DNA of 46,906 nt from a virus. The stretch lies in UHGV virus genome UHGV-1362522; one strand, given 5' to 3'. Below the pieces are notes generated by a model that worked only from the letters and a program-made list of their open reading frames with translations, did not search any database and was not told the origin of the DNA. Position numbers and translations under genes: made by a program. Of the stretch, positions 406 through 41,664 are shown piece after piece (positions within the stretch are counted from its first letter, which is position 1; every line of letters starts with the position of its first letter).

Positions 406-466
406 TGATATAATAAATGTGCAGCTAGGGGGCGCCCGAAAAGATGAACGTAGACATCCTGCTGCA
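406..466 (+). promoter_or_regulatory. extended -10 promoter (TGATATAAT at 406-414) plus conserved structured leader, copy A (paralog at 41566..41629)
   Basis: About 85% identity over ~35 nt to the sequence after terS: ATAATAA..GTGC(A/G)GCTAGGGGGC(G/A)CCCGAAAAG. Predicted stem UGCAGC 420-425 / GCUGCA 461-466. Confidence 0.45.
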
Positions 467-499
467 TCCTCAGTCTACGAACCTACTACGAGGTTAATC

Positions 500-592
500 A
501 TGGCAAAAAGACTCACCACGGAAGACTTCATTTCTCGCGCCAGGCAAAAACATGGCGATAAATACATTTATGATAAGTCTGTGTTTTCTTGA
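500..592 (+). pseudogene. 5' segment of the T5orf172 endonuclease gene (first Cys/His repeat), cut by an in-frame TGA at 590-592
   Basis: Starts MAKRL with an SD-like GAGGT 6 nt upstream. Same frame as 713..1405. The TGA sits in the middle of repeat 1 and the repeat continues after it (TKKQVTITCKKHGDF..GCELC). Confidence 0.4.
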
Positions 593-712
593 ACGAAAAA
601 ACAAGTAACGATAACCTGCAAAAAACATGGCGATTTTACTCAAAAAGCGGAATGCCATCTTGCTGGTTACGGCTGCGAACTTTGCGCCAGAGATGTTCGG
701 GCAAGAAAGTTA

Positions 713-1405
713 ATGACATCAAATGATGAATTTATCTCTAAAGCTAAAATGGTTCATGGTGATAAATACTCATATGACAAGTGCATATACTCAGGAAATC
801 ACAGGAAGGTGTTGGTAACATGTCAAAAGCATGGTGACTTTTCACAACAACCGGCAAACCATCTATCAGGAAATGGCTGTCCATCATGCAAACTTGAGCT
901 CCTGTCTGAAAAGTTCAGCGATAATAAAGCCTCATTCATAACAAAAGCAAGAGCAATTCACGGAAGAAGATACTCATACGAGAAAGTTAATTACATGAAA
1001 AGTTCAATAAAAGTGTGTATTACGTGTCATATCCATGGCGATTTCTATCAGACACCTAACTCGCACTTGTGGGGGTCCGGTTGCAATAAATGCACAGCTT
1101 ATGGGTTTAAACCTGCAAGTGTATATGTGGCTGAAATGGATGGGGCGTGCAAGATAGGTGTAAGCAACAACACTGAAAGAAGAATGAAAAGCATATCAAA
1201 ATCAGCAGGGAAAACTGTCGCTGTGGTTGCTGAGTACTCATTCCCATCATGGGCTGACGCGAGAAAGGCTGAATCAATGATACACAAAGAAATAAAACAT
1301 AAAAATGCAGGGTTAACCGGATTTGATGGGTCGAGAGAATTTTTCAATATATCAACCCATGAGGCGGCCGAATTGGTTTTAAAGCATGGAGGAAGAGTGA
1401 AATGA
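713..1405 (+). CDS. T5orf172 (GIY-YIG-related) domain endonuclease with N-terminal tandem HGDKY..KHGDF..GCxxC repeats; homing-endonuclease-like
   Basis: C-terminal VYVAEMDGACKIGVSNNTERRMKSI...EFFNIS matches the T5orf172/MUG113 signature. Two full ~50-aa Cys/His repeats. Inserted between portal and head morphogenesis genes. Confidence 0.6.
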   Translation: MTSNDEFISKAKMVHGDKYSYDKCIYSGNHRKVLVTCQKHGDFSQQPANHLSGNGCPSCKLELLSEKFSDNKASFITKARAIHGRRYSYEKVNYMKSSIKVCITCHIHGDFYQTPNSHLWGSGCNKCTAYGFKPASVYVAEMDGACKIGVSNNTERRMKSISKSAGKTVAVVAEYSFPSWADARKAESMIHKEIKHKNAGLTGFDGSREFFNISTHEAAELVLKHGGRVK

Positions 1406-3607: not shown

Positions 3608-4076
3608 CTGGAAGGTTGTTGCGGCCATTATCGGCGTAGCGCTACTGGCGCTGATTATCTACGGGAAGTGGGTCAATTACGGGAAGGCGAAATATAACTC
3701 TGGATATCTGGCAGCCGTGGAGGCGCAGAAGATAAAAGATAAAGAGGCAAGCGAACAACATGAGCAAGATAAAAAGACCATCGAACAGGAAGCGCAGAGT
3801 CGCATTGATGCCGCGCGTGCTGACGCTTCCGCTGCTGCTGTTAAGTCTGGCAGGTTGCAGCAACAGCTCGCCACAATCAGAAAGCAGCTCGTCGATTATT
3901 CCCGCACTGAGTCCATTGGCAATCCAGCCTCAAACACCGGAGTTTTGCTTGCCGACGTGCTCAGCAAATCTGTCGAAAGAAACAGACAACTGGCAGAATA
4001 CGCTGACTCAGCAAGAGAAGCAGGATTGACTTGTGAGGCTCAGTACAACTCTCTGCGCAATAAAAAAGCCCCATAA
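3582..4076 (+). CDS. i-spanin (Rz-like)
   Basis: N-terminal TM segment (VVAAIIGVALLALIIYG) followed by coiled-coil, Gln/Ala-rich periplasmic part. Contains an embedded lipoprotein ORF. Confidence 0.6.
   Translation: MILQILKANWKVVAAIIGVALLALIIYGKWVNYGKAKYNSGYLAAVEAQKIKDKEASEQHEQDKKTIEQEAQSRIDAARADASAAAVKSGRLQQQLATIRKQLVDYSRTESIGNPASNTGVLLADVLSKSVERNRQLAEYADSAREAGLTCEAQYNSLRNKKAP
3808..4029 (+). CDS. o-spanin (Rz1-like outer-membrane lipoprotein) embedded in the +1 frame of the Rz-like gene
   Basis: MPRVLTLPLLLLSLAGCS lipobox, Pro/Ser-rich mature part. The ORF opens at 3760; start chosen at the Met before the signal peptide. Confidence 0.55.
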   Translation: MPRVLTLPLLLLSLAGCSNSSPQSESSSSIIPALSPLAIQPQTPEFCLPTCSANLSKETDNWQNTLTQQEKQD

Positions 4077-4090
4077 AGGGGCTTTGTTTT
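4066..4090. terminator. rho-independent terminator (bidirectional) after the lysis cassette
   Basis: GCCCC-ATAAA-GGGGC hairpin followed by TTTGTTTT. Also U-rich on the opposite strand. Confidence 0.6.
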
Positions 4091-5610: not shown

Positions 5611-5670
5611 CATCTTGACTAATCTACGTCAATTAGTCAATACTAGGTGTTGTAGATTGTATCATAGTTG
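5611..5670. promoter_or_regulatory. divergent promoter/operator region with a 9-bp inverted repeat around the ATCTACGTCA motif
   Basis: TTGACTAAT-CTACGTCA-ATTAGTCAA at 5615-5640. An inverted partial motif TGTAGATTGT is at 5651-5660. Sits between a leftward (5591) and a rightward (5687) gene start. Confidence 0.45.
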
Positions 5671-7329: not shown

Positions 7330-7670
7330 AACTACAACTTAACGAAATCATGGAAGCAACAATCAGCGAGCTGGATGACATTGATATGACGCTTGCTTTT
7401 GAGATTGAGGCTATTGAGCGCCAGCTTGCCGGTAATCATGATGCAGGCAAGGTATGGAAAGAGAAGGCAATGAAAGCGCGAGACCATATGAAACGCACCC
7501 GCGCGCTGGTTCGCACTCGACTTGATAAGCTCTATTACGGCGAAGAAAGAATGTTACACGGCGCCATTCTGGCTGAAATCCGCAAAACGATGCCTGTCGG
7601 GAAATTCATGGATGCCGTAAACCGCGCAAAAGTTAACTGCGGAATGTTAAATAAGAATAGTCCTCAATAA
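7326..7670 (+). CDS. hypothetical protein (114 aa)
   Basis: ATGA-coupled. Charged helical protein. Confidence 0.4.
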   Translation: MKLQLNEIMEATISELDDIDMTLAFEIEAIERQLAGNHDAGKVWKEKAMKARDHMKRTRALVRTRLDKLYYGEERMLHGAILAEIRKTMPVGKFMDAVNRAKVNCGMLNKNSPQ

Positions 7671-10802: not shown

Positions 10803-10826
10803 TAAAGGGGCGAAAGCCCCTTTTAA
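10803..10826 (+). terminator. rho-independent terminator after the capsid gene
   Basis: GGGGC-GAAA-GCCCC followed by TTTT. Confidence 0.7.
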
Positions 10827-11036: not shown

Positions 11037-11067
11037 AAAAGCCCCGCGAGGGGCTTTGGTTTATTTT
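11037..11067. terminator. bidirectional rho-independent terminator
   Basis: GCCCC-GCGA-GGGGC with T-runs on both sides. Ends the leftward 13.3->11.06 kb operon. Confidence 0.65.
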
Positions 11068-12110: not shown

Positions 12111-12922
12111 AGCTTCTCCAGAATCGCCAGCACTTCACTCAACTCAGCGGAAGGAAGACGCAAAAACTCCTCGGTCTCCTGTGCGACATGACCCTCAGCG
12201 ACAACCATATGATCTGCTTCTTTCAGCAACTGAATCAGGCGGTCAATCGGCTTAACTTTTTTGGCCTTGAGCGTTTTAGCCGTCACCTTATCCTTGCCCT
12301 GCGCTTTCGCTTCCTCAACGGCAGCATCAATAACGTTAACTGCATCATCTCCATGCTCGCGCGCCACTGCAACAGCGTTGGCATAGCTGATTTGGCCTGC
12401 GTTGATACGTTGCTTGATGGCATCAGGTACGTCACCAAGTGACAGGTGCATCTGCACATCAGAAACTGAGCGACCGACCTTCTTGGCGATTTCTTCATTC
12501 GTCCACCCGAACCCTTTCAGGCGCACATACGCCTTTGCACGCTCAAGCGGGTCGAGTTGCTTACCCTGACTGGATGACACCATGAAGGCGATTTTATCCG
12601 CTTCATCGCCGGTGAAGTCTTTGCACTCAATGCGCGCAATTGGTACGCCGCGCTCAATAGCTCGCAGCGCGCCAAGATAACGATGCTGGCCGTCAAGAAT
12701 CTTAATGCGCTTTCCGGCAGCATCAGGAATAACAGTTAACGCCGGGATTGGCTGTCCTGATTCCCAGCACTGCGCGAAGTATTCAACGTGCTGCTCATCG
12801 GCTTCGCGGATGTTGTACCCCGGCTCAAGATAAAGCTGGTCGACAGGAACCTGATAACCTTTGTTGACCACGATTCCGCCGCGAGTTTCTTTGTCTGAGT
12901 AAATTTTTCCGAGAGATGTCAT
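12107..12922 (-). CDS. ParB-like nuclease domain (ParB/Srx) protein
   Basis: KILDGQHRYLGALRAI matches the ParB N-terminal motif. C-terminal helical DNA-binding-like region. Confidence 0.55.
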   Translation of the reverse strand: MTSLGKIYSDKETRGGIVVNKGYQVPVDQLYLEPGYNIREADEQHVEYFAQCWESGQPIPALTVIPDAAGKRIKILDGQHRYLGALRAIERGVPIARIECKDFTGDEADKIAFMVSSSQGKQLDPLERAKAYVRLKGFGWTNEEIAKKVGRSVSDVQMHLSLGDVPDAIKQRINAGQISYANAVAVAREHGDDAVNVIDAAVEEAKAQGKDKVTAKTLKAKKVKPIDRLIQLLKEADHMVVAEGHVAQETEEFLRLPSAELSEVLAILEKL

Positions 12923-13364: not shown

Positions 13365-13425
13365 TTCTACGTCATCACTATAGCGACACCCTCAATCTAC
13401 GTCAACACTTTATGATAAAATTAAA
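13365..13425. promoter_or_regulatory. divergent promoters: leftward TTGACG-N17-TATAGT and rightward extended -10 TGATAAAAT, with two motif copies
   Basis: TTCTACGTCA at 13365-13374 and ATCTACGTCA at 13395-13404. Sequence nearly identical to the promoter at 37836. Confidence 0.45.
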
Positions 13426-15487: not shown

Positions 15488-15564
15488 TGGTTACCGCGAC
15501 AGGATTCGAACCTGTAATCATCCGATTATGAGTCGGGTGCTTTAACCAGTTAAGCTAAACGGGA
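15488..15564 (-). tRNA. tRNA with anticodon CAT (Met or Ile2-lysidine type); acceptor stem has two mismatches, possibly degenerate
   Basis: Clean D arm (GCTT/AAGC), anticodon loop CTCATAA, T arm ACAGG-TTCGAAT-CCTGT and 3' ACCA. Pairs 2-71 and 7-66 are mismatched. Confidence 0.4.
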
Positions 15565-15567
15565 GTT

Positions 15568-15645
15568 TGGTGCACCATACTGGATTCGAACCAGTGACCT
15601 ACGGATTAGAAGTCCGTTGCTACTATCCTGCTGAGCTAATGGTGC
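15568..15645 (-). tRNA. tRNA-Arg (anticodon TCT)
   Basis: Acceptor GCACCAT/ATGGTGC, anticodon arm ACGGA-CTTCTAA-TCCGT, T arm ACTGG-TTCGAAT-CCAGT, 3' ACCA. 3-nt spacer to the neighbouring tRNA. Confidence 0.7.
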
Positions 15646-17221: not shown

Positions 17222-17265
17222 TCAATCTACGTCAGTCTTGCACTCCCTGTCAATGGTATAATTAC
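17222..17265. promoter_or_regulatory. divergent promoters: leftward TTGACA-N18-TAGATT, rightward extended -10 TGGTATAAT
   Basis: ATCTACGTCA at 17225-17234 (its complement supplies the leftward -10). A second partial motif ATTACGTCA is at 17261-17269. Confidence 0.4.
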
Positions 17266-23310: not shown

Positions 23311-25738
23311 TGTTCCTGCTGGCACTAATCTGTGGAGATGGCTGGAGAATTCCGGCCTTCCATCTGATATCAGGATTGCGCTGAATGGCCGCATTTTTGG
23401 CCCTGATGATGAATTGTCGATATCGTTAAAGCAAAACGATATTGTTAACATTTACTGTCAGCCTCGCGGCGCCATTGGCGACCTTATCAGCACGATACTC
23501 AAGCCTGTAACTAAGGTTCTTTCTTTTCTGCTGCCAAAAGCATCAACGCCATCAACCAGCACTGGAGCGACGGTTGAATCACCCAATAACAGCCTGAAAT
23601 CGCAAACCAATATTGCGCGAAACGGAGAGGCAAGACCTGACAACTTCGGTCAGATAAGGGCATTCCCTGACCTGATTCAGGAATCGCTTTTTGAATACAT
23701 TGACGATCTTAAGTACGTCACTGAGTTCATGAACTTTGGCCTTGGGAAATACACCATTTCATCGGTTCGCTATGCGGAAACTAATCTTGGTTCTCTGCCC
23801 GGCGCCACTCATATCATCTACAATCCAGGTGATGTGATCGGGCAAATCATTGAGCCTTACCAGTTCGACGGACTTGATGGTCAGGAGGTTCCAGGACTGA
23901 ACGAGTCAGAGGACACCCCGATAGAGACAGCGACCACGACATCTGTTACCAGTGGAGATTATGCTGGCGGTCAGTTGTTAATGGTCATACCAAAAAACAC
24001 TGATTTCGATTACTTTATGGGGTTATCTTTACCGCACTCTGTGTCATTAACAATAAATATCACCTACAACTCTACATCAGGGCCAGTTACTGAAAACATC
24101 CAGCTTAGTGGCAACATCATTTCAGCTGAGGAGACTGAAACTGGCGTCATTCCTGATATTCAGTATTTTTATAATTTCACATTCAATAACCTGACTGGCG
24201 CAAATCTTGGCAACCTGAGCGGCGCAACCATCAACAATACTTATTTCCAGATTGTGGATAATGAGGCGCTTGTTGTTGGCCCATATGTTGGAGCCGTGGA
24301 GTCGACGCAGGTATGGGTTCACGTTCAGTCTGAGCTTGGGCCAACCAGTGGCACGGCTGATTATCTGATCAAGGTATGGGCGGTTGATGATAATGGAGAC
24401 GCAATTCCCGGAACTGAGGAGCAGGTCGCAGATAGTATTGACAACCCATTCAATCAGACAACAAAAACCTATTATCGCACGTATAAATTAACTCCTGCTT
24501 ATGGGCTGGCTAAGTATGCCATCAGCATTGAAAGGACAAACAACTCAAACTCTGGCAACCGCGTAACGTTGCAGGCGGCGCACGCTATCAACATCCGCGA
24601 GAATGTGGTTTATCCTGATGACACCCTTGTTAAAGTGACAGTGAAGGCCACTCTTCAGCCCACATCAGTTACTGAGCGAAAATATAATGCGCTGATTACC
24701 CGCTGGACTATTGGATACAACAGAACAACCGGTACAGTAGACTATACGTTAACGCCATCAAGAAGTTTTGCAGATTCAGTGCTGCATAACTGGCTTATTA
24801 CTGCTGGTCAGCCTGAAAGCACCATTGACGTGGGAAGGCTCTATGAAATAGCTGATGCGCTGCCTGATGAGCGTCTTGGGTATTTTGATTACACATTTGA
24901 CGATGAGGATAAATCGATCGGTGAAAGAATTCAAACCATATGTGATGCAGCTCGCGTGACGGTTTTTTGGGATGATGGCGTTTTATCGTTTTCAAGAGAT
25001 GAGCAAAAATCAACACCTGAAACTGTGTTCAATACCAGAAACACGCAGGCCGATGGCTACAAAATGTCTTATGACATGACTTTGCCGGGGTCATATGATG
25101 GCGTAAGCGTTCAGTACCGAGACCCAAACACCAACAAACAGGATTACGTTTATTATAAAGTTGGAACATCTGGTATCGAACCAGGAGAGCCAACTAAGCC
25201 GAAAAAATTCGACATGCTATATGTTCGAAACCTGTATCAGGCAACAGACCGGGCTATGCTTGAGTGCAATCGCCTGATGTACTCACGCCGAGGGATGGAG
25301 ATAAAAGCGCTTGCTGATGGCGAGTGGGTGAACGTTGGCGATATGATTTCTGTTGTCGATATTTATGATTCTGTACAGCAAACAGGCGTTATCCGCTCAA
25401 GGTCTGGAAACACATTCACCACCAGTGAGCAGCTCACGGCTGGAAGCGGCCTGTTTGTGGTTATCACCGGCGCCAATGGTAATGTGTCAGAGCGTTTGGC
25501 TTGTACCGTTACTGGACTGAATACATTCGAGTGCGCATTACCATCTGACTTCGAGTTAAACATTTTTGATGGTGTTAATGTTCAGTCAGAATCAAGATAT
25601 GCCATCTCAACAGAGGTTGAGCTTGACTCAACTTTATGGACAGTCAGCCAGAAAACTCCAGGTACAGATGGCACGGTATCTCTTACAGTAACTGAGTACA
25701 ATGACGCCATGTACGCCTACACCAACCCTGTTGCATGA
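23258..25738 (+). CDS. tail tip / central fibre protein with gpI-like N-terminal domain
   Basis: N-terminal ~130 aa parallel lambda gpI (..[22 protein letters not shown]..). 826 aa in total. Confidence 0.45.
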
Positions 25739-25767
25739 TACAATAGGGCAATTAATGATTATGGAGA

Positions 25768-28245
25768 TTGCAGCCAATGGCTACTACCCCAACTAATAAG
25801 CCAATCCCTTCTGAAGATCCGCGCGACCTGAAGTTTAACGCCGGAAAGATTGATGAAGAGGTTAACGGAAGCGCTGATTACTACACCGACCGATTCAGCG
25901 TGCAGAGGCTGACGAATACCGGCAGGAATAAGCAGTTTCATGACGCACAGACTCAAAGGGAGTCTGAATTCGAGGTGTCACAGGAAGATAAGGAAGACAG
26001 ATTTCAGCAATTTCTCTTAAACTCTGGTTATCAGTTTTTAGGAGACTATGAGGACGGGCCATATACAATAACAGGTATTAATCAAGTAATTCGTTATCAG
26101 AATGAGTTCTGGCGTTTAAATGCTGGCACTAATCCACCATATACAACCACTGGAATTAATAGCGCGTCGTGGACCACTGATGTTACTCATCTGGTAAGCG
26201 TTGGTGATGCAAATTTAAGACAGGACTTATCATCTCCTGCTGGCTTATCTTATATCGGGAAAGTAAGCACCGTTGCGGCATTACGTCTGTTAGAACCTCC
26301 CATTTCCGGTGGAAGTGTTATTCTTGCACGTGCTGTAACCGGTGGACCGTTATTGAATGCGATCATGACCCACAACCCAGCCCCATCTGACGCAATTGAT
26401 GATGGCTACAGCCGTTTCGTGACTCCCGGCGGTGAAGTGTGGGACGCAGATATTAGTAACGGAACCAACGTATTTTTAGCAGGATATTCTGATTCTTTAA
26501 ATAACCTGGCGCAATGTCTTAACCTCATAATCAGCCATAAAGTTTCTAAAGTAATTAGCCGCGGTTTTGTTGCCGGCGGTATTGGATCTAAATTAGTTGT
26601 CCCTGCAAACCCGCGGGCGGATGGCGTCACCACTTTTACAATGACGGCAGCAGTAAAAATACCCACTTTCCTGGCATTACATTTGCCACAGGGTGCTATT
26701 CTGGATTACTCCGCCTTTAACTCGGAAACAGCGTTAGTCGTGTCAAACGAGTTTACCGGGCTGACGCAAAACATGATGTTCCTGAATAACGGCCCCGGCT
26801 GGGGTTCAGGCGCGGGTGCTAACGCAGGCCACAATGAGGGCGGTATTTACGCTAACGGGGCGTTGCTGAAAGGTGGTAATACGCTTAGCAATCTGAACTT
26901 TACCACCTATCCCGGTCTGCGGGTAGGTAACGTCACCTATCCCAGCGGGTCTTATGCCCACTGTAGCGGCGCGCGGGTATTTGATTTGCGTGTATCTGGC
27001 TTCGCCGAGGGGCTTCGATTCGGCTCGGTAGATACCTATATCCCGTGGATTCGCGGTTGCCATTTTACGTTCAACAATATTGGTATCGCCACCAGGACTG
27101 CTATCTCGGGGTCGACAGCTCAATGGGCTAACTCCGGGGAAAGAATGCTGGTAGATTCATGCCTCATCGCTGATAACTTTAGCCATGCTCTATCCAGAGA
27201 TGATCGAGGGGACTTTATCACTCTCAAAGATTGTAACATCGATTATAACGGTGGTGACGTTGTATTCTGCGGCCCGAAGAACTTAGGGAAAACTATTATT
27301 TCTGGTGGTCACGTGGAAGGTAATGCCGGTAAGCTGCTTAATTGTCCGACCCGCACAACCACTGCTGGCGAGAATAATCTAAAAATGACTGACGCGGTTC
27401 AATGGTATCCTAATACTGGTGTCGGTGATGTTTATGGTGGTGTTCGAGATATCGTATTTGGGACAACAATTCGAACCGTTCTCGATATGGATAATGTTGA
27501 TATTTTCTGCCGTGCTCCGTATGTTAACGGCGCGTATTCGGCGTGGAAATCATATAACCCTGCTAACCTGGCAAGAATTCGTATTAAGTACCCTAACAGT
27601 GGTCAGACGTACAGATTCTTACCTTCTTATGACGGTCAGTATGGTTACAAAATTAATAACGTGTTGTTACTCTCAGGAACAGAAAACGCTAACGTCCCAA
27701 CAACCCGAGGTTTGACGGATTTTTGGTGTATTAAGACCGGGTCCGCTACGTGCGTATACGGTGGCGCGGGGGACGCTGATAGTGATGGCTTGATCCCGGT
27801 TAAAATAACGTTAACGTCTGCTAGTGAAACGGTGCAGTTATTGCATAGCCTTGCGCAATACCCCGCACGTAATACACAGCATGCGCACGGCTTTTGCTCC
27901 ATAAAAGCGGCAGCTGCAACCGGCGCCGTTAAAGTGTCTGCCGTCGCGAGGGCGATCTCCAGCGTTACGCGATCAGCTAACCTGTCTACAGGCGCAGTTA
28001 CCGACACTGAAAAATTGTATGGCGTCAACCAGAGTTCGGCGCAAAATATCCTAACCTCTCTGGCTAACTCCACGATATCAATCACTGCTAACGATTTTAT
28101 GGGTACTCAGCCTCTTGCAGTACAGTTAACCGGAGGCCAGTATTCATATCTCGGATTCTTGTTTACTGGTTTTGTCGGAACTATCTACGTAAAACTTCCT
28201 GTATGGATGTTCTCCGATAACCATCCTTCATTCGGGTATCTGTAA
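25768..28245 (+). CDS. tailspike protein with right-handed beta-helix (pectate-lyase-like depolymerase) domain
   Basis: Conserved N-terminal adaptor-like region, then Gly/Asn-rich repeats (NNGPGWGSGAGANAGHNEGGIY...FTFNNIGIATR) typical of beta-helix glycanases. Confidence 0.55.
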   Translation: MQPMATTPTNKPIPSEDPRDLKFNAGKIDEEVNGSADYYTDRFSVQRLTNTGRNKQFHDAQTQRESEFEVSQEDKEDRFQQFLLNSGYQFLGDYEDGPYTITGINQVIRYQNEFWRLNAGTNPPYTTTGINSASWTTDVTHLVSVGDANLRQDLSSPAGLSYIGKVSTVAALRLLEPPISGGSVILARAVTGGPLLNAIMTHNPAPSDAIDDGYSRFVTPGGEVWDADISNGTNVFLAGYSDSLNNLAQCLNLIISHKVSKVISRGFVAGGIGSKLVVPANPRADGVTTFTMTAAVKIPTFLALHLPQGAILDYSAFNSETALVVSNEFTGLTQNMMFLNNGPGWGSGAGANAGHNEGGIYANGALLKGGNTLSNLNFTTYPGLRVGNVTYPSGSYAHCSGARVFDLRVSGFAEGLRFGSVDTYIPWIRGCHFTFNNIGIATRTAISGSTAQWANSGERMLVDSCLIADNFSHALSRDDRGDFITLKDCNIDYNGGDVVFCGPKNLGKTIISGGHVEGNAGKLLNCPTRTTTAGENNLKMTDAVQWYPNTGVGDVYGGVRDIVFGTTIRTVLDMDNVDIFCRAPYVNGAYSAWKSYNPANLARIRIKYPNSGQTYRFLPSYDGQYGYKINNVLLLSGTENANVPTTRGLTDFWCIKTGSATCVYGGAGDADSDGLIPVKITLTSASETVQLLHSLAQYPARNTQHAHGFCSIKAAAATGAVKVSAVARAISSVTRSANLSTGAVTDTEKLYGVNQSSAQNILTSLANSTISITANDFMGTQPLAVQLTGGQYSYLGFLFTGFVGTIYVKLPVWMFSDNHPSFGYL

Positions 28246-28255
28246 GGAGCGAAGT

Positions 28256-28435
28256 ATGTTCTATATTAAAAATAATACCGACGGCACGTATTCAGTGGTG
28301 TCGGACGAGCCGGAAGAATATTTAGTTTCGGGGGAAGGTGATATGCCAGAGTGTTTTGATGACGCTTTAGCGCTACTCAACTCACATCTGGCACTAAAAG
28401 GTATAAATAAGCCTTTAACTTTAAAAAGTGAGTAG
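28256..28435 (+). CDS. hypothetical acidic protein (59 aa)
   Basis: Perfect SD AAGGAG 7 nt upstream. Followed by a strong terminator. Confidence 0.4.
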   Translation: MFYIKNNTDGTYSVVSDEPEEYLVSGEGDMPECFDDALALLNSHLALKGINKPLTLKSE

Positions 28436-28439
28436 TATT

Positions 28440-28464
28440 AAAGGGCCGCAAGGCCCTTTATTTT
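28440..28464. terminator. bidirectional rho-independent terminator
   Basis: AAAGGGCC-GCAA-GGCCCTTT with T-runs. Confidence 0.65.
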
Positions 28465-28598
28465 AATATTTTAGTAAGGAATATGGCGGTTAGTATCACA
28501 TACGACTCATGCTGTAGCATTTGGTAATTCGCTGGTAAAAAAGGCACTATAATTGATAGAAGCGCCATAAAATGCCAGTAAGTAACACCTTTAAACAT
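28458..28598 (-). CDS. 46-aa hydrophobic peptide
   Basis: SD GGAGGA 6 nt upstream. Sequence MFKGVTYWHFMALLSIIVPFLPANY... Its stop lies inside the terminator hairpin. Confidence 0.3.
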   Translation of the reverse strand: MFKGVTYWHFMALLSIIVPFLPANYQMLQHESYVILTAIFLTKILK

Positions 28599-28971
28599 CG
28601 CATATCCTCCGACATACCACCTATACAACCCTTAAATCCTAATCCGCTACATCTTACATGGTTTGCAGGTCCAATGTATACCTGAGTTTATTCCGCTATC
28701 GCAACCGATAATTTGATGCTCCTTGATCTTTATAGCCCAATCATCAGGAAAAGAATAATTTCCGCTCTTTGATTAAACCTGTATAACACTCCCATCTGTT
28801 TTGCATGTGATGACAGCGCCAATAACAGCTACATCACATCCAAACTTAGCTATAAAGCCTTCGCTAACTTCGACAAGATCTTTAGGTATTTCATCACCTT
28901 TCTTGAAATTCCGCATTTTACATATACTCCCGCGATTAATTTTATTAACTTAAATGATATCACAATCCACA

Positions 28972-29475
28972 TCAAAACGGAATATCATCACCAAAATCCA
29001 TCGGCGGATCGTTTACCGGTGGTTTTGATGTGTTTGATGGTTGCTGAGGTTTACCCCATCCTGATTGCTGATTGCTTCCTGATTGTTGTCGCTGCTGTGA
29101 TTGTTGGTTTCCATTATCACTTGATTTACCACCAATCATTTGCATAACGCCGTTCATCGGCTGCAAGACGATTTCAGTAGTGTATTTTTCAACACCGCTT
29201 TGATCTGTCCATTTTCGAGTGCGTAATTTACCCTCTATGTATACCTGAGAGCCTTTGCGCAGGTATTCGCCAGCCACCTCTGCCAGCTTTCCGAAGATAA
29301 CCACGCGATGCCATTCTGTCTGCTCTTTCTTTTCCCCTGTTGCTTTATCGCTCCACTGCTCTGATGTTGCCAGAGACAGATTGCACACAGCGCCGCCAGA
29401 TGGCATATATTTAACTTCCGGGTCTTGGCCTAGAGTGCCAAGAATAATTACTTTGTTGATTCCGCGAGATGCCAT
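28972..29475 (-). CDS. ssb: single-stranded DNA-binding protein
   Basis: OB-fold N-terminus, Gln/Gly-rich linker and the canonical C-terminal DDIPF tail. Confidence 0.85.
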
Positions 29476-29484
29476 AATTTACCC

Positions 29485-30531
29485 TTAAAAGTTTTCGATG
29501 TTCTGTTGAGATGTTGATGGCTTCTCTTCGTTTGAAGATGACGCGTGCGCATCTGCTTTCTGGAGTTTTGCCGGGTTGAAATCGTCCTGCGGCGTGATAG
29601 TTACAGCTGCTGGAGATTCATCATTAATGAATGATTCAATGCGCTCATACTCTTCTGCTGATGCCTTCAATGTAGGCCAGATTGCACGAATTTTTGCTTT
29701 CACTGAATCAGGCAAGTTAACTGCCTCGGCAGTTAACGCAGCAACGCCTTTCGACGCCGTCATTTGAAGTTTAGAGCGCCAGTGCTCAAACTCTTCGTCG
29801 ACCTTGACACCTGAATCCACCCATTTAATTAAACCTCTCCCATGAGCCTCGCCTAAGTATCCTTCGTGTACACTATCACGGCCTGAATCAAAGAAGATTG
29901 GACGCAACTCTTCTGGTAGCTTGGTAAATTCCTGAATTTTTCCATTATCATACATCATCATGCTTACTGTCATTTCAAACATAAAATCTTTTTCGCATAC
30001 AGCATGCAATCCGAGGGATTCAGGTTTCTTGGGGTTTTTAAAACTCGTTTTCTCTCTGGCTCGCAAACACACGATGATATGCATATTGCTCTGCAAAAGA
30101 GCGCTCATGAATTTTTTATGTTCAGACTTGGCTCGCTTCCAGTCTGCCATTGCCTTACCCTGCAATAGTGGTTGCTCTGCAATATCATTGCATCCTCCTT
30201 CACCTTCCCATTCGTGCGATCCTGAATCAATAACCAGAACCTTAACGCCTGCCTCCTGAAATTCCTCGATAGCCTGGCGGTAACGAGCTGGACTAAATGG
30301 CGCATACAAATCAGCGTGCATAAATGGACCGTCAAGCTCTCCAGAATAAAGCCTGCCACGACCATTTTCAGAGTCAAGAAATCCAATTTCTTCTGGTTTA
30401 TCGACCATACCTCGCGCCATCTTTAGTGCCGTAAGCGTCTTGCCGCTACCAGACTGACCTGAAATGCCAATCACTATGCGAGAACCTGAACGCTCTGCTG
30501 GTTTAATATTAAGAATACCCATTTGCATCAC
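29485..30531 (-). CDS. RecA-fold ATPase (Sak4-like recombination protein)
   Basis: Walker A GISGQSGSGKT, Walker B KVLVIDSG, acidic C-terminus. Lies next to ssb and an exonuclease gene. Confidence 0.5.
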   Translation of the reverse strand: MMQMGILNIKPAERSGSRIVIGISGQSGSGKTLTALKMARGMVDKPEEIGFLDSENGRGRLYSGELDGPFMHADLYAPFSPARYRQAIEEFQEAGVKVLVIDSGSHEWEGEGGCNDIAEQPLLQGKAMADWKRAKSEHKKFMSALLQSNMHIIVCLRAREKTSFKNPKKPESLGLHAVCEKDFMFEMTVSMMMYDNGKIQEFTKLPEELRPIFFDSGRDSVHEGYLGEAHGRGLIKWVDSGVKVDEEFEHWRSKLQMTASKGVAALTAEAVNLPDSVKAKIRAIWPTLKASAEEYERIESFINDESPAAVTITPQDDFNPAKLQKADAHASSSNEEKPSTSQQNIENF

Positions 30532-30539
30532 CTCACTAG

Positions 30540-31496
30540 TTATAAATTAAATTGTTTTTTGAACCATTCCGGCGTTTCCATTTCGATGACCGGATTACCC
30601 ATTGAGTAGCCAGGCCATGAATTGGCTTTTTTGCATGCCTTATAGATTTCCATCGCGCTGCGCAGCTGAATGCGACCAATGCGTAACTGTTCATCAGTCA
30701 GACGAATCAACGCAGGGATGAATGGAGATTTCTTCTCCTGCACCAGAAGATTTACCGAGCGAGGTGCATGCCCATAAGCCTCGACAAACATGTCGTGCTG
30801 CATCGCCATCTTCATAAAGTACCCGAGACGCGCTGCATGGCGGAAAAACTCATCAGGCTTTGCGCTGACCGCTGTTTTGTAGTCGATGATATCGCCACCG
30901 CGAGTAAGGCAGTCAAAGCGTACTTTTGATGGCTCGCCAAGCAACTGACCGAGAATTGACACCTCGGAATAAGCACCAGAAAGCAGGCTGCTGTAATAGC
31001 TGTTTGCATGGATTACGGCGCGCATCTGCATGATGGCGTCATAATCATTGCCTTCCAGCATTGTTTTACCAGTAGCAGCCTTCTCTGCTTCTTCACGGAT
31101 AACATCGTAAATCTGCACTGTCTCGCCAGTGGCCTGAATAATTTTAATCACTTCGGCTTTAGTCTTACCTGAAAGCCCTTTAATTCCGCGCTCTTTCGCC
31201 CATGAGTTCATGTCGGAAGCTGTCAACAGCACCGTGCGATTGCCATCTTTGTCTTTTGGAAAATCTTCGACAACTGGCATGCGGGCATATTCTGCTTCGA
31301 AGCGCTCAGGCTCAAGCAGTGCGGTATGGCTACCGGTGCCGAAGACAAGAGCCTTTGATTGCTCATCTTCTTCGTCTTTGTAGCGCCACGCTGCCGGGCA
31401 GCGGTCATAGATGTTCCACAGGCCAGAGCCGTTGATGTGCTCTGTGTCAGCATGATATTGGTCATTACTGAGTTCGTTGTTTAAATAAACTTTCAT
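30540..31496 (-). CDS. PD-(D/E)XK family exonuclease (RecE/lambda-Exo-like recombination exonuclease)
   Basis: GDIIDYKT provides a D..D-x-K motif. Position in the recombination module. Confidence 0.5.
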   Translation of the reverse strand: MKVYLNNELSNDQYHADTEHINGSGLWNIYDRCPAAWRYKDEEDEQSKALVFGTGSHTALLEPERFEAEYARMPVVEDFPKDKDGNRTVLLTASDMNSWAKERGIKGLSGKTKAEVIKIIQATGETVQIYDVIREEAEKAATGKTMLEGNDYDAIMQMRAVIHANSYYSSLLSGAYSEVSILGQLLGEPSKVRFDCLTRGGDIIDYKTAVSAKPDEFFRHAARLGYFMKMAMQHDMFVEAYGHAPRSVNLLVQEKKSPFIPALIRLTDEQLRIGRIQLRSAMEIYKACKKANSWPGYSMGNPVIEMETPEWFKKQFNL

Positions 31497-31540
31497 CCAT
31501 CACCTCTTTTTATTGTTAAATCAATCTACATCAAACCACG

Positions 31541-31957
31541 TCATTCATCAAGCCCAAAATAGAATAACGTCGCTCTTTTTATCTCCTCAAGACCATAAGC
31601 AATGGCTCCAAAGTGACCCTCTGCAATGGCGCACTCAAGAACATCAATCTGCGATGGCGATACTTTTGATTTTGTCTTATCACGCCTCTTCAGCTCAATC
31701 AGGCCGCATTTATGATTAATGCCGTGAGTTAGTATCACGTTGTCGCTTACACCGCTCCTGACGCCCATCTTTCGGCGTTTCTCGACGAATTGAGGGCCGC
31801 TCTTTGTTCCAGTCTCGTTAGGCACATGAAACCACAGGACTTCAGGGAATCGGTATTGCATCCAAAGACCATAGGCCATCTGGTCAGTCTCTTCTTTAGG
31901 GCATTCTCCACGATAACCGCTATCAAATACCCATATTCCACCATCAAGCTGCTTCAA
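31541..31957 (-). CDS. VRR-NUC domain nuclease
   Basis: GVSDNVILTHG....IELKRRDK...QIDVL fits the VRR-NUC PD-(D/E)XK signature. Confidence 0.55.
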   Translation of the reverse strand: MKQLDGGIWVFDSGYRGECPKEETDQMAYGLWMQYRFPEVLWFHVPNETGTKSGPQFVEKRRKMGVRSGVSDNVILTHGINHKCGLIELKRRDKTKSKVSPSQIDVLECAIAEGHFGAIAYGLEEIKRATLFYFGLDE

Positions 31958-33878
31958 TTTGTTCTCCTATGAAATCCTTGCGGTGGATTATATCGCGGCC
32001 TTTATCGTTAAAACGATGCGTGATGCGCTTAGGCGCTCTGATTAACCCGGCGTAATGCATGAAAGTCTTCGCATCATGGCAGTCCATCATTTTCTTCATC
32101 ATTGATTTATCTTCCAGGTGCGGAAGCAGAGCCTTCATTTTAAACATGTCGCGCAGGTGCTTTGGTTTGCCTCCGAACGGATAAAACACCTCATTTGCCC
32201 AGCCGGTCTTGCCATCAGCTTTTACCACCAGGTAGCGATAAAGAACCCCCTCAGCGTCTTTAGTCAACTCGACTTTAAAATCTTGCACATCTGTCCATTC
32301 TTTATCCGTGTAGGCTCGCTCATTAAGCGCCGCATTAGGGTCGCGCAAAACGTGATCGCATTGACGGCAATAACGAGCTGTCGGGTCGTTTTTTGTGCCG
32401 CAACCATCATCAAAAATGCGGATGCCGTGCTTGTCGAAACCACAGCGGATGAAGCTGAAAAACTCTTCGCAACGACCATCTGGCGATGTTGCATCCTTAC
32501 CGATGCAGCGCCGTGCATATGGGCTGTTCATCGTCTGGCATTTAGGGCATGGAACTTGCTCTCCGCTGCGCTTGGCGCGCTGTGCTTCTGCTTCCTCAAG
32601 AATAGGGTCTTCGTACAGACCGCCAAGCTCAAACATGGTTCCGGTGAAGTCAAGGCAAAGATGGTTTTCTTTCACCAGACCTGCGGCAATCTGGTCTGGC
32701 TTCAATAATCGCATTGGTCGGCCAAGTAACTGCGTCAGAAGAGTCAGGGACATGATTTTTCTCAGGATGACAGACGTGTCCCAATATGGGATGTTGACGC
32801 CAGTCGTCAGGCAACCGATTTGCAGCGTGTATTTTTTGCGCCCGGTTGCCGCATCTTTCAGAGCTTTCCGTCTGGCTTTCTGCCCCATATCCTCGGTAAC
32901 AATGGAATAACTGCCTTCTGGTAAATATTTTGCAGCCTCCTTGCAATGTTTTTTACCTGCGCAGGTAATGAGTACACCAAGTCTGTCGCGCGTAAGCTCC
33001 ATGACTTTGAGCATTATTTTTTGCGTCAATGTACCCTGCTTGAGGATTTCTTCCTGCATCTCTTTTAGCTGGCTATCAGTGAAGTCCTGCACTCCGTCAA
33101 CGTCACTACTGGCAAACTCATGCAGATCGTATTGCAAGTCCTCGATATCCTGCCCGCCAAAGATGGTAGGGACAAGAAACCCAAGATCGACAAGGTATTT
33201 AGTGCTGATGTTGACGATTTCATGTTTCCAGTAAGCCCCTTTTATCGACTCAACGCCGCGAAATGGGCTGCCGGTGTAGCCAATGACAATCACCTCATGC
33301 CCGTACTTGGATTTGCAGCGCCGGTTAAGTTCATTCATGATGACACCGTACTGCGTCTCTGGCTGATCTGATATTATGTCCTGCCAGTTAACCTGGTGAC
33401 ATTCATCGACAAGGATGTAGCGAGGGGTAAAGTCCGAAAGCAAAGATTTTGTCACTGTGCCATCGTCTGCCGTCTTATCAAAAAGACCATTTATTATTGT
33501 GCCCTCTGTTCCCGCGATAAGCGGATAGGCATAAGCCTTACGCCCAAGTGAAGCGCTAAACAAAGAGTTTTTTACGCTCAGGTTCCAAAGCTCCTCAGCA
33601 TCCTGCTCAATAATTTCGCCTTGTCTTGCGATGACAAGCCCCTCCCACCCCATATCCTGAAACCGACGGGCAATCATGGCGATCATAATTGTCTTACCAG
33701 CACCAACTGATGCTGTCACAAAACTTGGTTTAGGTTCTCTACCAAACTTGCGGATAACCTCCGCTGTCTTTTCATACACTAGCCACTGATATGGGCGAGG
33801 TTCAATTTCCCCGGTATGGATGCTGGCACGCAGCTTATCCATATCCAGCTCAGCAATCATTGCATCAATTTTTTGCAT
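31944..33878 (-). CDS. SF2 DEAD/DEAH-box DNA helicase with C-terminal zinc ribbons
   Basis: ASVGAGKT (motif I), LVDECHQV (motif II), then CPKCQ..C and CRQC zinc-ribbon motifs. Confidence 0.7.
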   Translation of the reverse strand: MQKIDAMIAELDMDKLRASIHTGEIEPRPYQWLVYEKTAEVIRKFGREPKPSFVTASVGAGKTIMIAMIARRFQDMGWEGLVIARQGEIIEQDAEELWNLSVKNSLFSASLGRKAYAYPLIAGTEGTIINGLFDKTADDGTVTKSLLSDFTPRYILVDECHQVNWQDIISDQPETQYGVIMNELNRRCKSKYGHEVIVIGYTGSPFRGVESIKGAYWKHEIVNISTKYLVDLGFLVPTIFGGQDIEDLQYDLHEFASSDVDGVQDFTDSQLKEMQEEILKQGTLTQKIMLKVMELTRDRLGVLITCAGKKHCKEAAKYLPEGSYSIVTEDMGQKARRKALKDAATGRKKYTLQIGCLTTGVNIPYWDTSVILRKIMSLTLLTQLLGRPMRLLKPDQIAAGLVKENHLCLDFTGTMFELGGLYEDPILEEAEAQRAKRSGEQVPCPKCQTMNSPYARRCIGKDATSPDGRCEEFFSFIRCGFDKHGIRIFDDGCGTKNDPTARYCRQCDHVLRDPNAALNERAYTDKEWTDVQDFKVELTKDAEGVLYRYLVVKADGKTGWANEVFYPFGGKPKHLRDMFKMKALLPHLEDKSMMKKMMDCHDAKTFMHYAGLIRAPKRITHRFNDKGRDIIHRKDFIGEQIEAA

Positions 33879-33892
33879 TTTGAATCACCCAA

Positions 33893-34414
33893 TTATTTCA
33901 ATCGACCAAAATCTTTGTGGTATTTTTTAGATGCTATTGCATACGCCATTGCGGCTGCTTCTTTTGTGGCATGCCTTCCAAGCCATATTTTTTTATTATT
34001 AACCCATATCCAGCAAGTCCATCTACCTGTCTGCTTGCAAAAACCGACACCTTTCACTCCTGATGTGTTGTGTTTTGGGGTTCTCATGTTTCTAACATTT
34101 TCGTTAAAGTTTGCCTCTCTAAGGTTTTCTATTTTGTTGTTTAAAGGATTCCCATCGATATGGTCTATTATTAACTCAGGCCAATAACCATGCACTAACG
34201 CCCATATTATTCTATGAACCTTTATATCAAAGCCTAAAAAACCAACCTGAAGATATCCACTTACAGTCTTTGAGCCTGCAATAGCACCACGTTTAACCCT
34301 GTTTGTTGTTGTTCTTTTCCATATGAGATTTATTCCGTCATATGAAAAATACTCACGCAGCGTGGATACTGGTATTGACCTCTCTTTTGACTTCATCAAT
34401 TCGAAATCATTCAC
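33893..34414 (-). CDS. HNH homing endonuclease with AP2 domain, between helicase and primase genes
   Basis: HRIIWALVHGYWP..IDHIDGNPLNNKIENLREANFNEN then SGVKGVGFCK..GRWTCWI (AP2). Confidence 0.7.
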   Translation of the reverse strand: MNDFELMKSKERSIPVSTLREYFSYDGINLIWKRTTTNRVKRGAIAGSKTVSGYLQVGFLGFDIKVHRIIWALVHGYWPELIIDHIDGNPLNNKIENLREANFNENVRNMRTPKHNTSGVKGVGFCKQTGRWTCWIWVNNKKIWLGRHATKEAAAMAYAIASKKYHKDFGRLK

Positions 34415-34476
34415 TTTACGTTACCCTCATTCAGTGTTACGCTTAAAGCATACAAACAGTAACAGATGGAGTCAAC

Positions 34477-35367
34477 ATGTTTTATTGGGAAGATATACGA
34501 CAAAGGATGATTGGCAACTGGGAGGCCGCGCTGCTATCAATAGTGAATATTGACAGGAAGGTTTTTAATGGAAAGCATCAGCCATGCCCTCATTGCATGG
34601 GTAAGGACAGGTTTAGGTGGGATAACAACTTCGAAACAAAAGGTGACGGCGGCGCCATCTGCAACCAGTGCGGAAACGGCAGCGGAATCACCTGGCTAAT
34701 GAAGCTGTCAGGAATGACGTTTCCAGAGTCAATGGAGGCACTGGCCGGATTTCTGAACATGCACCCACGCGAAAAACTTGAGGCGATTAGAAAGCAGTTG
34801 CCAAAAGTCAATGGTGCATCGGACTGCCTTGCTCCAGAAGAAGTGGCGGCCATCATGGAAAAAGCAGGCGGCGACACTATAACCGGTAAAACTGGTGAAC
34901 TGGTGGCGATACCACTCTATATGGCTGGAACCATGTCGCCGTGCAACGTGGCTTTTCTGGCAGACGATGAAACCGTGTCATTTCGCGCGGGTTTTAGCCA
35001 TGAATACACTCGTGGAAGACTTACGCGCGGCGCAGTGACACCGATTGGTGAAAAAACAGAGTGGACATACCTGGTTGCGGATTACCTCGATGCCTGGCGA
35101 GCACACCGGCTTACCGGTGCTCATGTCTGGTGTTGCTGGTCGCCGGAAAATATGTGGGAAGTTGTGCGCAATGTGAGCGATGAACAGCGAGCTAAACTTC
35201 GCTGCATCATTAATAATAATTTCGACGAGGTATGCGCCGCCGAGAATGCTGGCCTGCCGATACTGATTACTGATGATGGTAATGATATCCGTTACAGCGG
35301 CGCCATCAGAAAAAGGCTGTATAAACCAGAAGAGCTATTTGAAGCACTAAAAAACAAACCCTCCTGA
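34477..35367 (+). CDS. DNA primase (zinc-ribbon + TOPRIM-like)
   Basis: CPHCMGKDRF...CNQCG primase zinc ribbon. Acidic D-x-D region downstream. SD GGAG. Confidence 0.55.
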   Translation: MFYWEDIRQRMIGNWEAALLSIVNIDRKVFNGKHQPCPHCMGKDRFRWDNNFETKGDGGAICNQCGNGSGITWLMKLSGMTFPESMEALAGFLNMHPREKLEAIRKQLPKVNGASDCLAPEEVAAIMEKAGGDTITGKTGELVAIPLYMAGTMSPCNVAFLADDETVSFRAGFSHEYTRGRLTRGAVTPIGEKTEWTYLVADYLDAWRAHRLTGAHVWCCWSPENMWEVVRNVSDEQRAKLRCIINNNFDEVCAAENAGLPILITDDGNDIRYSGAIRKRLYKPEELFEALKNKPS

Positions 35368-35380
35368 TGGAGGGTTTTTG

Positions 35381-35614
35381 TTATTCTATGCTAATTAAAA
35401 CGTAACCAGGAAGATATAAGCTTACATCAGCTATATGCACAATTAATTTATCAACCCTCTCACCTGTGTAATCACCATCCCATTCATAAAGAGCAAGAAT
35501 GTCTCCAACCTTAAAATTACGGTCGTTATTCCTTAGTTCAGCCCTCTTTAAACCATCAACAACAGGCCAAAAGTGTTGAGGTAATATTTTAAGTTCATGT
35601 ACTTTGCTCATCAT
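35381..35614 (-). CDS. DUF3850 (ASCH/PUA-like) protein
   Basis: HELKILPQHF...ELRNNDRNFKVGDILALYEWD matches the DUF3850 signature. Confidence 0.5.
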   Translation of the reverse strand: MMSKVHELKILPQHFWPVVDGLKRAELRNNDRNFKVGDILALYEWDGDYTGERVDKLIVHIADVSLYLPGYVLISIE

Positions 35615-37835: not shown

Positions 37836-37864
37836 TTGACGTAGATTGAGCGCCATCGTATAGT
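37836..37864 (+). promoter_or_regulatory. sigma70-like promoter TTGACG-N17-TATAGT for the rightward early gene block
   Basis: TTGACGTAGATTGAGCGCCATCGTATAGT. Contains the complement of the ATCTACGTCA motif. Confidence 0.5.
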
Positions 37865-41148: not shown

Positions 41149-41565
41149 ATGGCTAAAAAACTATTCAGTAGCGAAAATCAACCACCAAATAAGCGCGGAA
41201 AAGACAAACGAAAGCTGCTTATTGAGGCGCTGGAGCGAAAAGGGTTTACCGAGGAGACGCTTTACGACACTATCGTTGATATGGCTATTAATCAACGCGA
41301 CACTGCAATGATGAAAGAGCTTATCGTGCGATTTAGCCCCCTACCCAAGCCCGTAGCCCCTGTGTTTGAGGTCGACTTCCCTGATGATGGCACGCCGGTA
41401 GAGAAGATTGATGCAGTCATTCGCGGCATTGCATCCGGCATCATCCCAGCCGACATTGGCAAGATGTTTGCCGAAGTTATTAAGACCGGCCTTGACGTCG
41501 CGGAAGTAACAGAGCTTGCGGCGCGCCTTGAGAGGCTTGAGAAGCTACTGGAGCAGCAACAGTAA
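41149..41565 (+). CDS. terminase small subunit
   Basis: 138 aa. Basic N-terminus (KRGKDKRK), helical. Immediately upstream of terL. Extended -10 TGATACAAT upstream. Confidence 0.55.
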   Translation: MAKKLFSSENQPPNKRGKDKRKLLIEALERKGFTEETLYDTIVDMAINQRDTAMMKELIVRFSPLPKPVAPVFEVDFPDDGTPVEKIDAVIRGIASGIIPADIGKMFAEVIKTGLDVAEVTELAARLERLEKLLEQQQ

Positions 41566-41629
41566 CTGATTTATAATAATCAGTGCGGCTAGGGGGCACC
41601 CGAAAAGCGACTCATCACCGCCTGCCGCA
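41566..41629 (+). promoter_or_regulatory. TATAAT -10 plus conserved structured leader, copy B (paralog of 406..466)
   Basis: TTATAATAATCAGTGCGGCTAGGGGGCACCCGAAAAG. Stem UGCGGC 41584-41589 / GCCGCA 41624-41629 covaries with copy A (A-U to G-C). Confidence 0.45.
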
Positions 41630-41664
41630 TTCACTTCAATGATGCCCTGATGAGGAATCTATAT

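Follow-up and report, generated by a model that had tools for sequence, protein, structure and literature searches.

The window analysed here, meaning the whole stretch of 46,906 nucleotides, is a complete siphophage genome (~46.9 kb). Its bases 1-1,500 are 97% identical to Klebsiella phage YX3973, further relatives found there include phages of the genus Skatevirus, and the phage that carries both of the leaders described below is virulent and Skatevirus-like. The first leader, copy A (~406-499), follows the TGA at 403-405 that ends the portal gene and precedes an open reading frame starting with ATG at 500; the second, copy B (~41572-41664), follows the terS stop TAA (41563-41565) and precedes terL, whose ATG is at 41665. 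A preliminary description of the sequence had noticed a repeat of about 85% identity after terS, and the 27-mer ATGTGCAGCTAGGGGGCGCCCGAAAAG at 417-443 indeed recurs at 41581-41607 with 23 of 27 bases identical (85%). The 20-mer GCTAGGGGGCRCCCGAAAAG shared by the copies occurs exactly twice in the window, with 0 occurrences expected and none of 100 shuffled sequences reaching two; these statistics, together with the RNA-model search of the window given below, rule out a chance repeat as the origin of the duplication.

The same description had pointed to a compensatory change in a stem, and we see it as well: UGCAGC pairs with GCUGCA in copy A and UGCGGC with GCCGCA in copy B, an A-U pair being replaced by a G-C pair. 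Its core inference, that a structured leader with a covarying helix lies close to a promoter, was right, and this helix is P1 of a three-way-junction RNA (Table 1). The distance of about 45 nt that had been given to the downstream genes has to be revised, as the start codons lie 34 nt (A) and 36 nt (B) past the 3' end of P1. We also abandoned the suggested helix extension AGGGGG/CxUCCU, which clashes with P2 and P3, two helices with covariation support, since its G residues form P2 with CCC (435-437) and CAUC (455-458) forms P3 with GAUG (443-446).

Table 1. Positions of the two leaders, their parts and the genes behind them in the window.
Feature	Position	Strand	Basis or remark
Copy A extended -10-like box TGATATAAT	406-414 (TG 406-407, TATAAT 409-414)	+	directly after portal stop 403-405
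Copy A three-way junction	420-466	+	RF02996 alignment 28.5 bits; R1 24.3 bits
Copy A P1	420-425 with 461-466	+	RF02996 alignment
Copy A J1/2 UA	426-427	+	RF02996 alignment
Copy A P2, loop GGCG	428-430 with 435-437	+	RF02996 alignment
Copy A J2/3 GAAAA	438-442	+	RF02996 alignment
Copy A P3, loop AACGUAGA (447-454)	443-446 with 455-458	+	RF02996 alignment
Copy A J3/1 CU	459-460	+	RF02996 alignment
Copy A site 1 ("decoy") (G)UCUACG	473-479	+	complementary to P3 loop CGUAGA(C) 449-455
Copy A P4 hairpin	AACCU 480-484 with AGGUU 491-495	+	predicted fold
Copy A site 2 CUACG, in P4 loop	486-490	+	complementary to P3 loop, duplex -6.1 kcal/mol
Copy A Shine-Dalgarno (SD) GAGG	490-493	+	sequence
Start codon ATG after copy A	500-502	+	sequence
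T5orf172-type homing endonuclease ORF, after copy A	500-1405	+	Pfam T5orf172 1.3e-11 on 593-1402
Copy B -10-like box TATAAT	41572-41577	+	6 nt past terS stop TAA 41563-41565; without canonical TGn
Copy B three-way junction	41584-41629	+	RF02996 39.9 bits; R1 32.8 bits
Copy B P1	41584-41589 with 41624-41629	+	RF02996 alignment
Copy B J1/2 UA	41590-41591	+	RF02996 alignment
Copy B P2, loop GGCA	41592-41594 with 41599-41601	+	RF02996 alignment
Copy B J2/3 GAAAA	41602-41606	+	RF02996 alignment
Copy B P3, loop ACUCAUCAC (41610-41618)	41607-41609 with 41619-41621	+	RF02996 alignment
Copy B J3/1 CU	41622-41623	+	RF02996 alignment
Copy B site 1 ("decoy") UGAUG	41640-41644	+	complementary to CAUCA of P3 loop, duplex -4.2 kcal/mol
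Copy B site 2 UGAUGAG	41648-41654	+	complementary to loop CUCAUCA 41611-41617; 7 bp, -9.9 kcal/mol
terL, after copy B	41665-44184	+	839 aa, Terminase_3 domains and Hint/LAGLIDADG intein

The reading frame behind copy A contains an in-frame TGA at 590-592 and continues beyond it, and because of this stop codon the endonuclease gene is probably a decaying pseudogene, with its leader still intact. In YX3973 the stretch matching 500-1405 is also annotated as two separate CDS, and phage Seszw (L023) carries an intact homologue of 301 aa. The intein of the terL product is seen as matches to Hom_end_hint, Hom_end and LAGLIDADG_3 at about residues 87-370; the terL genes of phages PJN025 and IME207 are annotated with 1,425 nt (~474 aa), too short for this intein. 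Elsewhere in the window, two tRNA genes lie at 15491-15564 and 15571-15645 on the minus strand, opposite the structural genes (Rfam tRNA, 53.4 and 64.2 bits).

Both copies as members of the int-alpA RNA family

Copies A and B are two instances of an already catalogued orphan family, the int-alpA RNA (Rfam RF02996). When the whole window was scanned with Rfam at curated thresholds, copy B scored 39.9 bits against a gathering score of 35.8, and in a local search of 291 nt copy A, a divergent copy, scored 28.5 bits (E 3.8e-4), so that the gathering score is exceeded by copy B only. Both copies align to model positions 1-71 and contain the three-way junction of the family, in which P1 encloses the hairpins P2 and P3, with the joining nucleotides C-UA-G, C-GAAAA-G and C-CU-G exactly preserved. 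A further family trait is a 3' tail behind P1 (consensus AgGG) with complementarity to the P3 loop (consensus CCuU); both copies have it, the tail at 474-479 matching the loop at 449-454 (A) and the tail segments 41640-41644 and 41648-41654 matching the loop at 41611-41617 (B).

The int/alpA gene context is absent from both loci of the window, the neighbours being portal and endonuclease genes at one and terS and terL at the other. It was not recovered in our family sample either, in which the E. coli members inspected lie between Rha and DUF551 in late regions of prophages. Since other members above the threshold also occur in varied contexts, we regard the int/alpA context as a naming habit and not as a structural criterion.

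An independent covariance model, R1, was built from 16 unrelated family members. Run without filters on the whole window, R1 found only copy B (32.8 bits) and copy A (24.3 bits), and the next match, at 10.5 bits, was a plain hairpin. No third or degenerate copy of the leader was found in the window with this model, the remaining matches being plain terminator hairpins such as those at 10803-10824 and 28439-28460. Four symmetric GC-rich hairpins between A and T runs, at 4065-4085, 10804-10823, 11038-11057 and 28439-28460, resemble bidirectional terminators and are the sole other weak RNA-model matches in the window.

A search pattern of the junction nucleotides matched at least 120 loci in viral contigs and at least 120 in species-representative bacterial genomes, and the matches listed gave a family sample of 133 non-redundant members (51 viral, 82 genomic). 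Most of the viral pattern matches listed carry P1, P2 and P3 of differing sequence. Members scoring above the RF02996 threshold come from Bacillota, Bacteroidota, Planctomycetota, Chloroflexota and Nitrospirota, and also from Thermodesulfobacteriota, Alphaproteobacteria and an E. coli prophage, which makes the family far wider than its name. The motif originates from Weinberg et al. 2017 (NAR 45:10811; PMC5737381) and belongs to the many orphan structured RNAs catalogued in that year to which no function is assigned; the main text of the paper has no discussion of it. In the literature that we searched, "int-alpA" was found only in a table of sRNAs and, as a gene order, in a table of satellite elements, and Rfam types RF02996 as "Gene; sRNA" with function unknown.

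The structure itself was examined in 51 distinct R1 homologues among the matches listed. In these sequences 96.5% of the cells of P1, P2 and P3 are paired, compared with 35-50% in a control in which the partners were slid by 1-3 columns. Changes on both sides of a pair were counted in 256 cells versus 73.5 ± 6.6 in shuffled alignments, and they affect 12 of the 15 base pairs. Strong covariation is seen in P1, P2 and P3 alike across the family sample. On the sense strand G-U pairs outnumber A-C pairs by 26 to 7, which indicates that this strand is the structured one, as expected of an RNA. The joining nucleotides are identical in all 51 R1 matches, which had been collected with a pattern that fixed the junction.

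Folding energies of the single sequences are ordinary, with z-scores of -0.67 and -1.57 that are not significant, and the minimum-free-energy fold yields P1, P2 and P3 for copy A and departs from the family fold for copy B. Thermodynamic support was discarded on these grounds, and in view of the unremarkable z-scores the case for the structure is comparative, not thermodynamic. We also considered the core of a hammerhead or another ribozyme. The junction strands of the hammerhead are 7, 3 and 1 nt long, those of the leaders are 2, 5 and 2 nt long, and on this informal comparison a ribozyme core was rejected. The P2 loops of the family are often palindromes of 4-6 nt (AGCU, GGCC, GAUC, UGCA, CGCG); those of the window lie at 431-434 and 41595-41598, copy A having the palindrome GGCGCC. 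Such loops could be a signal for loop-loop dimerisation or a by-product of hairpin symmetry.

Complementarity of the P3 loop to the Shine-Dalgarno region

In the sample of 133 members, the longest Watson-Crick run between the P3 loop and the sequence after P1 has a mean length of 5.5, versus 3.7 with swapped loops, and at least two downstream sites with at least five Watson-Crick pairs to their own P3 loop are present in 64% of the members versus 8% with swapped loops, the sites having been chosen by complementarity and the exchange of loops between members being the sole guard against circularity. The first of these sites, site 1, begins 6-9 nt past P1, and site 2 reaches to -8 or -7 relative to the start codon, the position of the SD, with a spacing of 13-14 nt between the two sites. 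Site 1 is the longer of the two in 49 cases and site 2 in 11. The segment behind site 1 pairs with the one behind site 2 in a further small helix, P4 (mean run 4.58 versus 3.29 in the control), which puts site 2 and the SD into its loop. In nearly all members a start codon on the same strand follows 20-45 nt after P1.

The two copies of the window carry the same elements. The pairing of the P3 loop with site 1 in copy A is a predicted pseudoknot of 6-7 bp with a duplex energy of -9.8 kcal/mol, and site 1 covaries with the loop in two relatives (L100 and L062) and in copy B. In copy B, site 2 overlaps the SD GAGGA (41652-41656), and the ATG of terL lies at 41665-41667. Copies A and B have different loops, different sites 1 and different sites 2, yet within each copy the three remain complementary; this is internal covariation beyond the P1 pair. 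The bias of the duplexes is opposite in the two copies: the decoy is stronger in A (-9.8 versus -6.1 kcal/mol), and the SD duplex is stronger in B (-9.9 versus -4.2 kcal/mol). Several candidate functions had been offered in the preliminary description, and of these a translational control hairpin fits best, the P3 loop being complementary to the SD region in A, in B and across the family.

An intrinsic terminator (GC-rich stem and U-tract) was looked for at both copies, and neither gave a terminator-like call. The tails read UCCUCAG in A and UUCACUU in B, and with no U-tract and no call a terminator identity was rejected.

Transcription context and mobility of the leaders

The preliminary description had proposed a duplicated promoter. 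TATAAT is present at both copies and is preceded by the TG of an extended -10 element at copy A; that element is not duplicated, as copy B has no canonical TGn. The box TGATATAAT is invariant in 8 of 8 aligned leaders of the Skatevirus type, and the TATAAT of copy B is conserved in IME207 and in copy B of Seszw. The window holds 17 matches to the pattern TGnTAnAAT where 7.9 are expected, and most of them lie upstream of genes on the plus strand. The -35 boxes are poor at both copies, and a two-hexamer promoter scan calls neither. The invariance of the box and the over-representation of TGnTAnAAT make an extended -10 promoter plausible at copy A, and its predicted transcription start would fall at ~420-422, the 5' edge of P1.

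A -10-like box ending 7-13 nt before CTAG was counted in 21 of 51 viral and 21 of 82 genomic members, versus 3 and 5 in a control window, numbers that may be confounded by stop codons outside Skatevirus. In the members with such a box, the predicted starts would fall at or within the 5' strand of P1. A promoter universal to the family was rejected, since the -10 signal is weak over the 133 members when they are aligned on the start of P1 and, when anchored on CTAG, is seen in about a third. For more than half of the sample (74 of 133), an ORF in the same orientation stops a median of 22 nt (mode 11-13 nt) before the leader begins, so the family is basically intercistronic and the promoter is an optional add-on. 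A separate sequence, the 11-mer AATCTACGTCA, is found at 2879-2889, 5621-5631, 13394-13404, 17224-17234 and 44539-44549 on the plus strand and at 37837-37847 on the minus strand, plus about 17 near-copies. With up to two mismatches it has 23 matches versus 10.2 expected, a number reached in 0 of 100 shuffles, and it usually lies 10-20 nt upstream of TGnTAnAAT. It is absent from both int-alpA leaders and has the appearance of another class of promoter or regulator site, specific to the phage.

The genes that follow family members are diverse and mostly without a Pfam match. Homing endonucleases (HNH_3, HNH, T5orf172, GIY-YIG, NUMOD4/AP2) and replication initiators or primases are the classes recognised most often, followed by the Rha and ANT regulators, integrases and Dam. 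With so many kinds of genes behind the leader, a dedicated role for late or packaging genes, another of the functions initially considered, is unsupported. The idea that the element is mobilised together with a homing endonuclease gene is supported by the arrangements in two relatives. Skatevirus phage PJN025 has no leader at either portal/head-morphogenesis or terS/terL. Its single A-type leader stands, together with the same TTEDFISRA-type endonuclease ORF, behind the head-morphogenesis gene, and this occurrence at a different site indicates that the leader and the endonuclease gene move together. In IME207 the order is leader B, HNH_3/AP2 endonuclease, terL, and homology breaks exactly at the start codon.

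Related leaders are found well beyond these phages. An Oceanospirillum phage has a nearly identical leader 3' half upstream of a KilA-N gene, with GAACA as J2/3; another subtype with 75-86% identity occurs in phages of Vibrio, Enterobacter, Edwardsiella, Klebsiella, Pantoea and Pseudomonas; and in E. coli prophages the leader lies upstream of a DUF551 moron (an accessory gene inserted into a phage operon), between lysis and packaging genes. Within one genome, P1 and P2 are shared by both leaders, with GGGGCRCC in the window and TCCGGCCAGA in Seszw (compared regions 420-443 and 41584-41607, and 7354-7408 and 12631-12684, respectively), and the 3' half, which comprises the P3 loop, site 1 and site 2, is particular to each locus and conserved from genome to genome. 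Gene conversion that broke off near GAAAAG could have produced this mosaic, or a common P2 may have been selected.

A viable, genome-reduced engineered mutant of Seszw has lost the endonuclease gene and the 3' half of leader A (PMC9825161), from which it follows that copy A is dispensable to the phage. In the Seszw mutant 70L (L242, MZ375307), isolated as a large-plaque phage, an engineered deletion (positions 400-470) joins leader A, cut off midway through P3 and so still with its promoter, P1 and P2, directly to the ATG of the head-assembly gene, with AAGGUGA of the P3 5' strand as a makeshift SD.

A translation gate, its alternatives and known systems

We propose that each copy is an int-alpA member serving as a portable cis-acting 5' leader that gates translation, a reading to which we give about even chances. 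The P3 loop would be an intramolecular anti-SD. Paired with site 1 in the pseudoknot, it would leave the SD free and translation on, and in a loop-loop contact with site 2 it would mask the SD and turn translation off. The rigid junction may fix the geometry or bind a conserved factor and would thereby bias the choice of site. Such a self-folding, portable module would let an inserted gene set its own translation rate whatever operon it enters, and its usual passengers would be homing endonuclease, moron and replication genes. Copy A would have arrived here with the now decayed T5orf172 endonuclease gene, and copy B now sits directly on terL. The proposal builds on the fold, the triad of loop, site 1 and site 2, the SD in the P4 loop, the spacing to the start codon and the portability. 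Against it count the ordinary folding z-scores, the deviating minimum-free-energy fold of copy B, the sRNA typing by Rfam and the dispensability of copy A. Given the opposite duplex biases of A and B, one on/off logic for both copies would be no more than an assumption. The invariance of the junction nucleotides across phyla suggests a partner or ligand outside the gate model. We advance only tentatively the broader possibility that int-alpA RNAs are in general portable intercistronic translation gates and not sRNAs, in which the loop would toggle between the decoy and the real SD, the junction would read a universal cue, and selfish or accessory cassettes would carry the whole. Candidates for the cue are a ribosome component, RNA polymerase or a metabolite, and candidate carriers are homing endonucleases, morons and replication genes of satellites or phages.

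Several other explanations were weighed. The typing by Rfam speaks for a trans-acting sRNA, a short RNA that would start from the -10 box and end past P1, its P3 loop pairing with remote targets or with its own read-through mRNA. At least five U within the 8 nt after P1, resembling a terminator, in 46 of 133 members and the -10-like box upstream of about one third of members agree with this, but the window copies have neither U-tract nor terminator call, nearly all members stand at the short distance given above before a same-strand start codon with their best loop partners in cis, and most lie between co-directional genes, and we consider such an sRNA quite improbable. A riboswitch-like leader would be a refinement of the gate, with the junction UA, GAAAA and CU binding a metabolite, an ion, a protein or a ribosome component and so choosing the site for the P3 loop. 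We hold this unlikely: the uniform junction of the 51 model matches and the threshold members in Bacillota, Bacteroidota, Planctomycetota, Chloroflexota, Nitrospirota and Pseudomonadota favour it, but the downstream genes have no metabolic theme in common, P1, the usual switching helix, is long, GC-rich and outside any alternative pairing, and the collection of members is biased by the pattern that fixed the junction. A role in mRNA stability or processing, in which the element would protect the adjoining segment of mRNA from RNases or be cleaved by one, likewise has a low probability in our estimate. It leaves the covarying triad of loop, site 1 and site 2 and the invariant junction without an account, although P1 starts at the predicted 5' end and members most often start just clear of a ribosome terminating at the upstream stop codon (mode 11-13 nt).

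An element directed at RNA polymerase, either a processive antiterminator similar to the put RNA of phage HK022 or a transcription attenuator on the late operon, would suit the position directly behind a promoter-like box, the two copies per genome, the conservation across phyla and the U-tract after P1 in some family members. We regard it as very improbable, for it leaves the SD pairing and the fixed start-codon distance unexplained. The put RNA has two stems, lacks a closing helix and binds the zinc-binding domain of the RNA polymerase beta' subunit (PMC9378689), R1 has no match in positions 24000-36000 of HK022 (best 7.9 bits), a range with the put region, and no terminator-like site lies just downstream of A or B. 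The antitermination site mentioned in the preliminary description is not supported by these results, and a put-like antiterminator was rejected, with neither structural nor model similarity to HK022. A feature acting at the DNA level, such as a homing-endonuclease target, a recombination hotspot or a single-stranded DNA structure, is equally hard to credit. Endonuclease genes do adjoin the leaders, and the leaders are mosaic, with 5' halves common within a genome and 3' halves specific to the site; against this stand the excess of G-U over A-C pairs (26 versus 7) on the sense strand only, the compensatory changes that keep pairing and not sequence, and the strict same-strand relation to SD and start codons.

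The window offers a tractable handle on int-alpA function, as two leaders with differing loops and targets and with opposite decoy and SD strengths occur in one small virulent genome, leader A in front of a decaying homing endonuclease gene and leader B in front of an essential terminase gene. An sRNA of unknown function is thereby replaced by a model that can be tested by mutation, with an anti-SD loop, a decoy, a hairpin loop that displays the SD and a start codon at a fixed distance. Should the gate prove true, it would account for the way in which mobile genes shield and restrain their expression within essential phage operons, and phage engineering would gain a compact insulator part of natural origin; otherwise the leaders are simply two further instances of a known motif.

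The leaders share with the int-alpA motif its three-way junction, its joining nucleotides CUAG, CGAAAAG and CCUG and a 3' tail complementary to the P3 loop. They differ in lying among the packaging and head genes of a virulent Skatevirus-like phage instead of an int-alpA interval, copy A moreover scoring below the threshold, and in contrast with the sRNA typing by Rfam their anatomy points to a cis-acting leader. The activator pseudoknots of the rep genes of IncI-alpha and IncB plasmids (PK-repZ and PK-repBA) activate translation, are blocked by an antisense RNA and need translation of a leader peptide. The leaders would resemble them in that a hairpin loop pairs beside an SD, there that of a replication-initiator gene, and sets its translation, and they differ in that neither an antisense RNA nor a leader peptide is seen at the window copies. 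The put RNA of HK022 is similarly a promoter-proximal structured RNA of ~60-70 nt with two copies per phage genome, but it acts on RNA polymerase without a link to a ribosome-binding site (PMC9378689), and its architecture of tandem stem-loops without a closing helix is not seen in the window copies.

The nearest functional precedent for the proposed gate would be the control of homing-endonuclease genes in phage T4, where the genes I-TevI, I-TevII, I-TevIII, segB and mobE have hairpins that sequester the ribosome-binding site and embedded late promoters (PMC2988022). In both cases an RNA structure that masks, or here would mask, the SD lies upstream of an endonuclease ORF, a promoter or promoter-like box stands at the edge of the structure, and the gene is placed inside an essential operon. 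The T4 hairpins, unlike the leaders, are simple and lineage-specific, and their promoter excludes the inhibitory arm. The leaders combine a conserved three-way junction with a predicted pseudoknot and a decoy, across phyla and in front of many gene types, and since their loop lies downstream of the predicted start, the anti-SD loop would, in contrast with the T4 hairpins, be contained in all transcripts.
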